This document shows positions 34,429 through 41,250 of a stretch of 59,151 nt of DNA, in pieces. The notes under the pieces are model-generated. The model did no database searches, had not been told where the DNA came from, and saw only the letters and a program-made list of their open reading frames with translations. Position numbers and translations under genes: made by a program. Each line of letters begins with the position of its first letter. Positions within the stretch are counted from its first letter, which is position 1. Origin of the DNA: Firmicutes bacterium UBA1393 (GTDB lineage: Bacteria > Bacillota > DTU025); assembly GCA_002305255.1 (NCBI GenBank), contig DBQN01000083.1:28642-87792 (forward strand). The letters are read 5' to 3'.

Positions 34429-34788
<360 letters not shown>

Positions 34789-38394: not shown

Positions 38395-39093
38395 TCAGCC
38401 GATCGCGGCGCCGCGGCTTGCCTCCGATCGCACCTCTTTCACCGCGGCGCGGTAGTTGAGGGCCCAGTGGACCATCCATGCGTAGACCAGCCCGTGCCGA
38501 GCCAAGACACCTAAGGCCGCCCCGGTTACCGTCGGCATGAGCATTGAGTAAGCCACCAATGCCCGCGGCGCTCCGGCCACCGCCATTGGCACGGCATGCA
38601 CTAGCCCGAAGACCACCGCCTGTAGCGGCACAGCCAGGGTCGGCCCTAAAACAACGGCAAGCCAACGCTGCAGGAGCCCTCTGAACAGGACCTCCTCTAG
38701 CAGCGCGCCTGAAGCGGTGAATGTCGCCGCCCTCATGCGGCGCAGCCGACGCGGGCTGTGCACCAGGGCCTGCCCTGCACCGCCGGCGCTCACCCCGGCA
38801 CGTTCCACCCACAGGCCGCACTCTCGCAGCAGCCCTGCTCGACAACGGTCGCCCGCCATCGACGCAACCACATAGACGGCGATTGCGCCCATCACCGCGC
38901 CAGCGTTCATCGGGCCGACAATGCCCAGTGCCACGACGGGGTCCCCTCGAGCCAGGGCCAACGCAACAAGTACTGACACAAGCAGCACGTCACCGATGTC
39001 GAACCCGGACGAGGCCCATCGCACCCATGTGTGCAGACGCACAAGCACGCTTATGGCCACTATAGATAGTACAACGACGGTTCCAGATCGCAT
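38395..39093 (-). CDS. CPBP-family intramembrane glutamic endopeptidase (CAAX protease/Abi family)
   Basis: Polytopic membrane protein with LEEVLFRGLLQ (EExxxR) and FGLVHA (FxxxH) motifs. The start was set to ATG 39093 (SD AAAGGA 9 nt upstream), which overlaps the rSAM stop by 34 nt. Confidence 0.8.
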   Translation of the reverse strand: MRSGTVVVLSIVAISVLVRLHTWVRWASSGFDIGDVLLVSVLVALALARGDPVVALGIVGPMNAGAVMGAIAVYVVASMAGDRCRAGLLRECGLWVERAGVSAGGAGQALVHSPRRLRRMRAATFTASGALLEEVLFRGLLQRWLAVVLGPTLAVPLQAVVFGLVHAVPMAVAGAPRALVAYSMLMPTVTGAALGVLARHGLVYAWMVHWALNYRAAVKEVRSEASRGAAIG

Positions 39094-40619
39094 CTGATAC
39101 GGTCCTTTGCTTTGGCGAAGTTCTCTTCCGCGCTGCACTCATCATCCCACGACCAGAGGATGCTCTGAAAGAACACGCGGTAACCGTTGCACCTTGGGTC
39201 CGGGCAGTTGATCCTGCCACTCGTCGAGAGGGCGGCGGCCCTGCAACCTCCCCCGCAGAAGTAGCGCACGGTGCACCGCCGGCATTGAGGCATCAGGTCG
39301 ACATCAGGAAGGGGCCACGGACTGAATACGCCCTGCTCCTCAAGGAGCCGCTTCGCCTTGTCGATGGTCAGCGGCAAGTGCGAATCCATTAGCAGGTGAC
39401 ACGGGTACACCAGTCTGCTTGCCGACACTGCCAACACCGCGCTTCCGGCCCCGCATCTGTCGCGGGGAACTACGAAGCCTACCTCATCAAGGCTGACGAT
39501 CTCCGGCGCTCCAGCCCGTCTCCAGCATGCCTCCATGTACTCTACCATTGAGAAGGCGAACCTATGCCCACTATCGACCTTGATGGGAGAGGCGGCGCCC
39601 GCACCGACGGGCTGAAACAGGCTGATGTGGCACTTCACTCCTAGAGACGAGCTGAACTCCCATATGGCCTCTGTATCATAAGTGTTCAACAGGCCAACTG
39701 TCGGCACCAACTCGACATTCGGCACACCTGCGCTGACAAGGTTTTGCACACCCTTTACAGCAGCGGCATGGGATCCAAGGCCTCGTATGCTGTCGTGCCG
39801 CTCTGGATCAGGCGACTCAATGCTCACCTGAACGTCACAGCCTAGTTTGGCAAGACGTTTCGCCAGGCGCCGGTCGATCCGTGTTCCGTTCGTTGCCAAC
39901 ACCACCCGCGTGCCGGGCACCGATACAATGCTGATCAGATCCAGCAGGTCTTCCCTCAGAGTGGGTTCACCGCCGGTGACCACGACTTCAGCCGGCTTGA
40001 TCGTTGCCACCCACTCAGCAGATGACCTTGCGTGCCATTTGTCAGCCTCCTCATGACAAAAATCGCGGTAGCAGGTTCTACACCTGAGATTGCAGCTCTC
40101 ACTCACAACAAAGTGGATCTTCTTCGGCCTGAATGGCCGGATTCCCTGACCTGCACACTGCGGGTCAACTGAGCCGTCGCCATGATCTGCTTGGATTTCA
40201 TCATCGCCGTAGTCGTCACAGCACTTCTCTCTGATCCTGCCCATCACGGCCTCTCTGATCCCTGCTGGCTGCACGTACTCCTCCAAGAGCTTCATCTCAC
40301 GCAGCCGCTCAAAGGTGTTCAGCATGTCGCTCACAGCCTCGCTGCCGTGTTCTGCCGCCAGCCTGTCGCACACGGTTCCTACGCTCACGCCCAGTGCGTC
40401 GCTGCAGTAGCGTCCCGCCTCCGAAGAGAGCCGCGCCCACGAGCCCTTCCCAGTGTTGATGATCAGCATGCCATCGTCATCCTGGATGAGCCGGGAACCG
40501 TTAGATAGCCTGTACACCGTTGATCTATCCGGCACTGGCACGGTATCACTCCTCCCCCAATACATGGCGAGGAACCAACCGCATTGCGATGGTTGGTTCC
40601 TCTCGAGGTCAACGCTCAT
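39060..40619 (-). CDS. radical SAM / SPASM-domain peptide-modifying enzyme with N-terminal PqqD-like RRE
   Basis: 519 aa with a CNLRCRTC (Cx3Cx2C) motif. The C-terminal Cys clusters (CGAGS..PCH, CRRCTVRYFCGGGCRAA, CPDPRC) are typical of SPASM. Residues about 35-125 (VYRLSNGSRLIQDDDGMLIINTGKGSWARLS...LLEE) look like a PqqD-type leader-recognition element. Confidence 0.85.
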   Translation of the reverse strand: MSVDLERNQPSQCGWFLAMYWGRSDTVPVPDRSTVYRLSNGSRLIQDDDGMLIINTGKGSWARLSSEAGRYCSDALGVSVGTVCDRLAAEHGSEAVSDMLNTFERLREMKLLEEYVQPAGIREAVMGRIREKCCDDYGDDEIQADHGDGSVDPQCAGQGIRPFRPKKIHFVVSESCNLRCRTCYRDFCHEEADKWHARSSAEWVATIKPAEVVVTGGEPTLREDLLDLISIVSVPGTRVVLATNGTRIDRRLAKRLAKLGCDVQVSIESPDPERHDSIRGLGSHAAAVKGVQNLVSAGVPNVELVPTVGLLNTYDTEAIWEFSSSLGVKCHISLFQPVGAGAASPIKVDSGHRFAFSMVEYMEACWRRAGAPEIVSLDEVGFVVPRDRCGAGSAVLAVSASRLVYPCHLLMDSHLPLTIDKAKRLLEEQGVFSPWPLPDVDLMPQCRRCTVRYFCGGGCRAAALSTSGRINCPDPRCNGYRVFFQSILWSWDDECSAEENFAKAKDRIRCDLEPSLYYL

Positions 40620-40717
40620 CCAATTGTGATGACATAGCCCCAGAACGGGAAGGAGACGCAGATGCCGTTGATGGACATGTTCGCTCTAGGGGCTCGGCCT
40701 GCCAGGATCCTGAACAC
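40616..40717 (-). CDS. candidate RiPP precursor peptide (33 aa; possibly 48 aa if it starts at ATG 40762)
   Basis: Not in the ORF track because it is shorter than 60 aa. SD GGAGGTGA lies 5 nt before GTG 40717 and the product is MFRILAGRAPRANMSINGICVSFPFWGYVITIG. The stop TGA overlaps the rSAM ATG (ATGA). The in-frame upstream ATG 40762 would add MICACRPHIIAEVIK but has no SD. Confidence 0.6.
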   Translation of the reverse strand: MFRILAGRAPRANMSINGICVSFPFWGYVITIG

Positions 40718-40789
40718 CTTGATCACCTCCGCAATGATGTGTGGCCTACACGCACAAATCATGGTCGCGCTTGCAGCCACATGTTACCA

Positions 40790-41188
40790 TCATTCGCGGC
40801 TTTCCTGCACCATCTGAATGGGCGAATTTGCTAGGTGAATCAAGGATTCTGACACGCCGATGAGGCCCGACGCAAAGGAATAGGTCACCGCCATGCTCCT
40901 GTTATTGACCCCCAGCTTACGGAAGATCGACCTGACGTGGGTCTTCACTGTGTTGACCGACACGAACAGCCTTGACGCGATGGCGGTATTGGACAGGCCC
41001 TGTGCCATCAACTCCATCACGCGCTGTTCACAACTGGACAGCTGAGGCACCGGCCCTTCGTGAGCCAGCAGCCTCGCCAGAGCCGCAACTGAGGACCGAC
41101 CGTCGCCCCTGGCCCCATCCCTGTTCATCGCAGCCAGAATGGGGCACATAATCGTTGCAGCGCTCTTGTCAGATGCTGATTCAGACAT
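40790..41188 (-). CDS. LuxR/GerE-family HTH transcriptional regulator
   Basis: 132 aa with the C-terminal region LSSCEQRVMELMAQGLSNTAIASRLFVSVNTVKTHVRSIFRKLGV, a classical GerE-type HTH. Confidence 0.85.
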   Translation of the reverse strand: MSESASDKSAATIMCPILAAMNRDGARGDGRSSVAALARLLAHEGPVPQLSSCEQRVMELMAQGLSNTAIASRLFVSVNTVKTHVRSIFRKLGVNNRSMAVTYSFASGLIGVSESLIHLANSPIQMVQESRE

Positions 41189-41221: not shown

Positions 41222-41250
41222 AGCATAACATTGAAGCCAGCCCCCGTCAA
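41222..41250 (-). promoter_or_regulatory. candidate promoter for the LuxR / peptide / rSAM / CPBP unit
   Basis: Minus strand reads TTGACG (41250..41245), a 17 nt spacer, then TATGCT (41227..41222). Confidence 0.45.

Follow-up and report, generated by a model that had tools for sequence, protein, structure and literature searches.

The skf operon of Bacillus comprises the SkfA precursor, the radical SAM (S-adenosylmethionine) sactisynthase SkfB, the CPBP-type protease SkfC and the ABC transporter SkfEF. The mature product, SKF, contains a single thioether made by SkfB between a Cys donor and a Met acceptor (PMC8172795), together with a disulfide and head-to-tail cyclisation. We checked the gene order on a Bacillus tequilensis locus (SkfA, Radical_SAM+SPASM, Rce1-like, ABC_tran) and describe here a locus of comparable layout in Firmicutes bacterium UBA1393 (assembly GCA_002305255.1, contig DBQN01000083.1, positions 28,642 to 87,792), a stretch of 59,151 nucleotides (nt) referred to below as the window. 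A preliminary description had pointed to an unlisted short open reading frame (ORF) ahead of a radical SAM gene on the minus strand of the window. Judged by its conservation, this ORF is a real, unannotated gene under purifying selection, and its 33-residue product is probably a ribosomally made precursor that serves as substrate of the neighboring RRE-radical SAM-SPASM enzyme (RRE, recognition element of RiPPs, peptides made on ribosomes and then modified after translation).

In layout, skf is the closest counterpart, a likeness of logic and not of membership. The order precursor, radical SAM enzyme, Rce1-like/CPBP protease and ABC transporter recurs in one of the subfamilies distinguished below (subfamily B), and the single thioether Cys of SKF has its counterpart in the one invariant Cys of the new peptides. 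However, the proteins of the two systems are distant relatives at best: the peptides are without detectable homology, SkfB and the enzyme share 25% identity restricted to the radical SAM core, and a pairwise comparison of the CPBP proteins gave no significant similarity. SkfA has 55 residues with a long leader, whereas the peptide described here has 33; SkfB carries a twitch domain with one auxiliary cluster, whereas the enzyme has seven conserved Cys in its SPASM region. In addition, a thioredoxin-like gene is absent here, and the subfamily to which the window belongs has no transporter and occupies a fixed chromosomal site beside obg.

On the minus strand the peptide gene reads GGAGGTG-ATCAAG-GTG TTC AGG ... 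ATT GGA TGA, exactly as first written down, with the product (M/V)FRILAGRAPRANMSINGICVSFPFWGYVITIG; the GTG start (40717-40715) is followed by 32 codons and the stop (40618-40616). Two lengths had been considered for it, and the 33-codon gene is the conserved one (Table 1), whereas the coordinates given at the time (40616-40762) are those of a 48-codon form that did not hold. Every locus fetched for comparison was reached through the enzyme or through the peptide. A pattern search over all fetched DNA recovered the ORF in 58 loci (26 distinct peptides), every copy having 33 codons without indels, a length that the search pattern itself fixes; two relatives in protein databases have 34 and 36 residues. 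In all fetched loci the start codon, ATG or GTG, occupies an identical position, and a Shine-Dalgarno (SD)-like G-rich element lies at most about 10 nt before the start in every one of them (5-8 nt in most), as GGAGGTG in most loci and as GGGGGTG or GAGGAGG in a few. The earlier view of the ORF as a true short coding gene, whose GTG start follows an SD, is upheld by this conservation, and every gap between regulator and enzyme genes in the contigs of the relatives holds the same 33-codon ORF.

Six residues of the peptide are invariant (G7, C20, F23, W26, T31 and G33), and G27 is kept in all subfamilies but one. The emphasis that had been placed on a single Cys and an aromatic C-terminal half was well placed: Cys20 is invariant among the relatives and is the sole Cys in the window peptide and in most of them. 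The FPFWGY core singled out at the same time survives in part, F23, W26 and usually G27 being conserved, whereas P24, F25 and Y28 vary. Residues 1-12 have a basic character (MF-x-[IV]-x-[AG]-G-[RK]...), and the C-terminal half of the window peptide is hydrophobic. An AlphaFold2 (AF2) model of the peptide alone, of low confidence (predicted local distance difference test, pLDDT, 60), places three short beta-strands at residues 13-15, 20-25 and 28-32 and leaves the N-terminal dozen residues disordered, with no helix.

We take the ORF to be real because it is conserved, not because of its size; an ORF of such size is not beyond chance in the GC-rich window, for which an ORF listing gives dozens of spurious ones. 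Entropy at codon positions 1/2/3 was 0.78/0.53/1.21. Of the six frames, none but the sense frame stays open throughout the 18 distinct sequences, and its ratio of non-synonymous to synonymous variation (pN/pS) is 0.41; each of the five other frames is interrupted by stops (in 3 to 18 loci), at pN/pS values of 0.62-1.48 (best antisense frame: stops in 3 of the 18 loci, pN/pS 0.99). Between the window and its closest relative (L001), the peptide gene has 9 synonymous and 5 non-synonymous differences. Gene callers have annotated the 33-residue gene in several relatives. In two others they placed antisense ORFs over it, on the minus strand of those loci (L001 4727-4981, 84 residues; L005 4732-4926, 64 residues); these were rejected as real genes, with stops in other loci and no purifying selection.

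Searches of Pfam and NCBIfam with the peptides (E-values up to 10) gave no meaningful match, and no meaningful name for the peptide was obtained from any source, including a collection of 5.8 billion proteins. When 1.84 billion representative proteins were searched with a profile, 12 matches only were returned, two of them spurious; the peptide family is narrow. The two spurious matches are long and multi-repeat: P0140 proved on inspection to be a translated tandem repeat, and P0144 was set aside from its match pattern only. A further protein, P0136 (58 residues, one ENA contig), joins a frameshifted N-terminal half to an intact RANVSINGICISFPLWGYIITIG; it reflects either an error of assembly or a copy turned pseudogene.

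Further upstream in the window, in-frame starts would lengthen the product to 48 residues (ATG, 45 nt upstream) or 54 residues (GTG), and the 48-codon form had been proposed to add an amphipathic, helical leader. This proposal was abandoned, as different lineages have unrelated protein sequences ahead of the 33-codon start, and both extensions were rejected. A conserved DNA block (TGCAAGCG) lies 46, 58, 59, 60, 63, 68 or 69 nt from the peptide start, a spacing that falls in all three frames, and because the upstream indels are not multiples of three, the extension is judged non-coding. Its seemingly conserved ‘EV’ residues are the translated SD. As for the helical leader, AF2 gives beta-strands and no helix (at the low confidence stated above).

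In the alignments, this upstream block (Table 1) has as its third element across loci TGGnTGCAAGCG, and in the lineage of the window it overlaps the last codons and the stop of the regulator gene. No consensus RNA structure was found in the 5' leader and conserved block, and no sigma-70 -35/-10 pair was called in the block. It is probably the promoter or operator of the peptide operon. That operon consists, from first to last, of the peptide, the enzyme and the CPBP protease, with the regulator gene just upstream.

The preliminary description had also read an ATGA stop/start overlap as translational coupling of peptide and enzyme. An ATG at 40619-40617 does overlap the peptide stop in frame with the enzyme gene, but the conserved enzyme start is the GTG at 40541, 74 nt past the peptide stop and with its own SD. 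This start was deduced from the lengths of homologues and their alignment: the 26 residues that follow ATG 40619 are found only in the longest ORF of the window, none of the 16 other family members aligns to them, those members have 438-497 residues save for one N-terminally extended call of 528, and the closest relative (71% identity) has exactly 493. In the relatives, 72-330 nt separate the peptide gene from the enzyme gene. A public protein identical to the window enzyme (P0001) is called with 519 residues, from the ATG that overlaps the peptide stop. From gene overlaps of 4 to 34 nt in most relatives (34 nt in the window, the 3' end of the enzyme gene being overlapped by the protease gene), we conclude that the translationally coupled pair in most loci would be enzyme and protease, not peptide and enzyme; in one relative (L096/L097) a gap of about 100 nt is found instead.

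Full-length relatives of the enzyme with 29-71% identity were obtained by protein search; all belong to uncultured Bacillota/Clostridia, and biogas and fermentation metagenomes account for most of them. A scan of genome contigs with the single enzyme sequence gave no match, whereas an alignment-based scan found relatives. The enzyme matches Pfam Radical_SAM (E=4e-21), and in the alignment the CxxxCxxC motif (C150, C154, C157) and seven C-terminal Cys are invariant; Pfam PqqD, which has the RRE fold, was detected in 6 of the 17 family members (best E=1e-7). In the AF2 model (pLDDT 82) the N-terminal domain comprises four strands plus three helices (pLDDT about 90) and is followed by a disordered linker (94-135) and then by radical SAM and SPASM-like domains. 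Foldseek matched the model best to CteB, SkfB, SuiB and TigE over the full length (E=1e-13 to 1e-16), then to anSME, PqqE and ChlB, and the best PDB match by sequence was SkfB (E=7e-7). Judged by this architecture, the enzyme appears to be a leader-dependent peptide maturase. The earlier suggestion that the peptide is linked to an RRE-containing radical SAM/SPASM enzyme, and is a plausible RiPP precursor, agrees with their tight association across loci.

The NCBIfam models nearest to the enzyme (StsB, NirJ2, MftC, ScmE and WgkB) all scored far below their curated cutoffs. The scores against cutoffs, in bits, were 99/625 for StsB, 95/265 for MftC, 81/650 for WgkB, 60/340 for PapB and 46/381 for PqqE, and membership in these five families was rejected. 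By such comparisons the enzyme belongs to no characterized family. For a curated sactisynthase the best score is that of StsB, and the identity to SkfB is confined to the core, so that this assignment was also discarded; a Cys donor in the core, as in sactipeptides, is present in the form of the invariant Cys20. CteB (SCIFF thioether) and SuiB (Lys-Trp link of streptide) have the same arrangement of N-terminal RRE, radical SAM barrel and SPASM (full-length Foldseek E=7e-16 to 1e-13), but only 12-15% sequence identity to the enzyme. SCIFF has a multi-Cys pattern, whereas the peptide here has one Cys; a ranthipeptide/SCIFF identity was rejected on this ground, together with the absence of any Pfam or NCBIfam match for the peptide and the PapB score. 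Unlike streptide, the peptide has no conserved Lys in its C-terminal half (residues 13-33) for a Lys-Trp link, and with the WgkB score this led us to reject a streptide/WGK type of crosslink.

Mycofactocin (MftA/MftC) and PQQ (PqqA/PqqE) also resemble the present system, in that a very short, highly conserved and vertically inherited precursor is encoded beside an RRE-dependent radical SAM/SPASM enzyme. Here, however, the peptide ends in T-[IVL]-G and not in GVY, a Glu...Tyr pair is missing, and the companion genes of those pathways are absent, with a CPBP protease and a LuxR regulator in their place. A mycofactocin or PQQ precursor was rejected on the basis of this C-terminus and of the MftC and PqqE scores. 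Features by which RiPP precursors are recognized were found nevertheless: the ORF is co-oriented with, adjacent to and co-conserved with the enzyme, which has CxxxCxxC, auxiliary Cys and a PqqD-like RRE. In the literature on radical SAM plus CPBP/CAAX RiPP systems we found no description of this peptide family. The peptide is very probably the precursor of a new modified peptide, and we regard it as a new family in a kind of system that is itself well known.

Table 1. Coordinates of the features described in the text (positions in the window).
Feature	Position	Strand	Remarks
Sigma-70-like promoter	41222-41250	minus	TTGACG-17-TATGCT with TG extension; upstream of regulator gene
LuxR/GerE-type helix-turn-helix (HTH) regulator	40790..41188	minus	132 residues; Pfam GerE E=2e-18
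Conserved non-coding block	40763..40826	minus	From alignments; conservation independent of reading frame
Short palindrome CCATTCAGATGG	40810-40821	minus	In conserved block; ACCCGTTTGGGT in other loci
Extended -10-like element TGGTAACAT	40781-40789	minus	In conserved block; TGnTAnnnT
Element TGGCTGCAAGCGCGACC	40763-40779	minus	In conserved block
Shine-Dalgarno GGAGGTG	40724..40730	minus	6 nt ahead of peptide GTG start
Precursor-peptide gene (probable function), 33 codons	40616..40717	minus	GTG start, TGA stop; product (M)FRILAGRAPRANMSINGICVSFPFWGYVITIG
Conserved stem-loop	40569..40602	minus	GAGGAACCAACC-(10 nt)-GGTTGGTTCCTC; between peptide and enzyme genes; no U-tract
Enzyme Shine-Dalgarno GGGGGAGGAG	40548-40557	minus	GTG 40541 lies seven bases after it
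RRE-radical SAM-SPASM enzyme (predicted peptide maturase)	39060..40541	minus	493 residues from GTG 40541
CPBP (Rce1-like) intramembrane glutamic protease	38395..39093	minus	232 residues from ATG 39093
T-box leader	34452-34771	minus	109 bits; upstream of an 834-residue ORF
tRNA-Ala(GGC)	34518-34593		CCA is encoded; Rfam score 64 bits; ARAGORN confirms it

Three subfamilies of the peptide were distinguished. Subfamily A (...AGR...WG[YFQV]xITIG), which includes the window, adjoins obg and has a stem-loop between the peptide and enzyme genes; subfamily B has the form MYGKxGGK...DLAIDGxCFTFxLWGHRxTxG, and none of the B loci examined adjoins obg; subfamily C (MF[KR]RxTGKY...WIFEITLG) adjoins obg. 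Peptides of B and C have R, H or E among the residues of their C-terminal half. Downstream of the protease, the annotated B loci (L095, L098-L100) encode an ABC ATPase and an ABC-2 permease. Among the fetched loci the peptide pattern occurs only beside full-length members of the enzyme family, and it was absent from about 120 loci of other radical SAM/SPASM enzymes. No second candidate substrate gene is conserved in the cassette among the annotated relatives.

The gene order on the minus strand of the window is LuxR/GerE regulator, peptide, enzyme, CPBP protease, obg and nadD. In the relatives the cassette consists of a GerE regulator, a gap of 250-550 nt, the radical SAM gene and the CPBP gene, and in most of them it is followed by obg, nadD, an RRM protein, an HD protein and rsfS. 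Identities of four relatives to the window are 90, 77, 69 and 55% for Obg, 71, 44, 34 and 30% for the enzyme, and 85, 64, 52 and 42% for the peptide, which is in each case more conserved than its enzyme. Because the three identities fall in step, we conclude that the cassette has been inherited vertically at the obg site. The protease matches Pfam Rce1-like (E=9e-10), its EExxxR, FxxxH and HxxxN motifs are invariant in nine homologues, and its start was set by alignment at M16 of the longest ORF (ATG 39093).

A regulator gene lies directly upstream of the peptide gene in all annotated relatives. Its product (132 to 237 residues among the relatives) consists only of a GerE HTH domain and a short N-terminal region, in which a hydrophobic-Cys-Pro-Leu/Ile-Leu-Ala motif is conserved, and has no receiver domain. 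The -10 hexamer of the sigma-70-like promoter upstream of this gene (Table 1) resembles the -10-like element ahead of the peptide gene in several relatives.

The stem-loop of the window has a perfect 12-bp stem and a 10-nt loop. Equivalent structures with variable loops were present in all 18 non-redundant subfamily-A loci and in none of the 12 loci of subfamilies B and C; three of the 11 predicted pairs show compensatory double changes, and several G-U wobble changes occur. The distance from the peptide stop ranges from 14 to about 160 nt, with no overlap with the ORF, and the 3' arm holds CCUC, for which pairing with the enzyme SD is conceivable. The data do not support an intrinsic terminator, as a U-tract is missing, and Rfam gave no family match to the stem-loop, the only hit in the region being a chance long non-coding RNA at E=0.19. 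Hairpins after precursor genes uncouple expression in other RiPP operons. In subfamily A the stem-loop probably has a similar effect on peptide and enzyme, by mRNA processing, stability or partial attenuation, which would let the precursor outnumber the enzyme.

If the peptide is the substrate, its basic N-terminal dozen residues would form a short leader bound by the RRE domain of the enzyme, and the latter, with a 5'-deoxyadenosyl radical and auxiliary Fe-S clusters, would modify the strand-prone C-terminal 21 residues. The likeliest modification would be a crosslink at the invariant Cys20, e.g., a thioether to F23, W26 or T31, and a carbon-carbon crosslink at W26 would be less likely, although our confidence in any specific chemistry of the product is low. 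The preliminary description had suggested a cyclophane, a Trp crosslink or a single thioether. The CPBP protease might then trim, release and/or export the product, or confer immunity. Several observations weigh against a substrate role or its details. The presumed leader is short (about 12 residues), and the peptide is conserved as a whole, with no clear leader/core boundary or cleavage motif; its AF2 model is of low confidence. The window subfamily is without a dedicated adjacent transporter, and vertical inheritance beside obg is atypical for bacteriocin-like RiPPs. PqqD was not detected by Pfam in the enzyme of the window itself, and SPASM was detected by Pfam in only 2 of the 17 members. 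Finally, the position of the stem-loop relative to both genes varies and it has no U-tract, so that its role is a guess.

Some of these points would also fit a 33-residue product that is not a substrate but a small protein partner (a beta-rich accessory subunit, or a membrane-associated or toxin-like peptide), co-localized with the enzyme through co-regulation only; enzyme and protease would then have some other target. Conservation over the full length without indels looks more like a folded mini-protein than like a leader with a variable core, inheritance beside obg suggests a housekeeping role, and the C-terminal half of the window peptide is hydrophobic. We nevertheless consider such a partner unlikely: the enzyme carries an RRE domain, a domain known for its role in binding precursor peptides, the cassette offers no other conserved candidate substrate gene, and the B and C peptides are too polar for a transmembrane helix. 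The presence of a conserved stem-loop between ORF and enzyme in subfamily A, with CCUC in its 3' arm that may pair with the enzyme SD, raises the question of whether the ORF is instead a regulatory leader peptide (an upstream ORF) that controls expression of the enzyme together with that stem-loop. This seems quite improbable, since the structure lies outside the ORF, at a variable distance past its stop, subfamilies B and C keep the peptide without it, and purifying selection acts on the amino acids along the whole length behind a strong SD.

The least probable explanation, largely refuted by the evidence given above, is that the frame is open by chance where a non-coding DNA or RNA element is conserved, or that the real gene lies on the antisense strand. 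Spurious ORFs of equal size are common in the GC-rich window, annotation chose the antisense ORF in two relatives, and a conserved non-coding block lies just upstream; yet the sense frame alone is open in all 18 loci, the best antisense frame is interrupted in three of them and shows no purifying selection (pN/pS 0.99), and variability at third positions, the fixed length of 33 codons, the conserved SD and start, and the calls of a 33-residue gene in several relatives all speak for the peptide. A precursor modified by the adjacent enzyme remains the reading that we prefer.

For such a precursor we propose, tentatively and with considerable doubt, a modified peptide that is inherited vertically across the lineage and plays a physiological role in an uncultured clade of Bacillota from biogas reactors, not a strain-variable bacteriocin. 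It might be a signalling pheromone that the adjacent LuxR/GerE regulator, which has no receiver, would sense, or else a cofactor derived from a peptide, and its crosslink might be one not yet described for radical SAM enzymes, e.g., from Cys20 to Trp26 or Phe23 in a three-stranded mini-sheet. Maintenance of the cassette at the obg site, while Obg diverged to 55% identity, hints at a physiological role and not at warfare. New crosslink chemistry is possible because the enzyme lies outside all characterized families, and the system offers a clean and compact target for heterologous expression, in which a single enzyme and a single protease accompany the presumed substrate of 33 residues. The peptide family, previously unnamed, is here defined together with its dedicated radical SAM enzyme, protease and regulator; its gene is often missed in annotation, or replaced by an antisense miscall, and the start codon of the enzyme is corrected as well.

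Two further observations concern the surroundings of the cassette. On a subfamily-B contig (L101, 2223-5454), the GerE-peptide cassette directly follows a ThiF-like gene and the genes of a SCIFF precursor and of the radical SAM maturase that belongs to it, and two radical SAM-peptide systems are adjacent there. In the window, the 834-residue ORF downstream of the T-box leader is probably leuS, by synteny, and in the leader the stem before the antiterminator carries 111 inserted nt in its loop. This insertion is a complete tRNA-Ala(GGC), and the same tRNA is found between rsfS and leuS in a relative (L006, 10705-10780); a tRNA nested in a riboswitch leader is an unusual arrangement.

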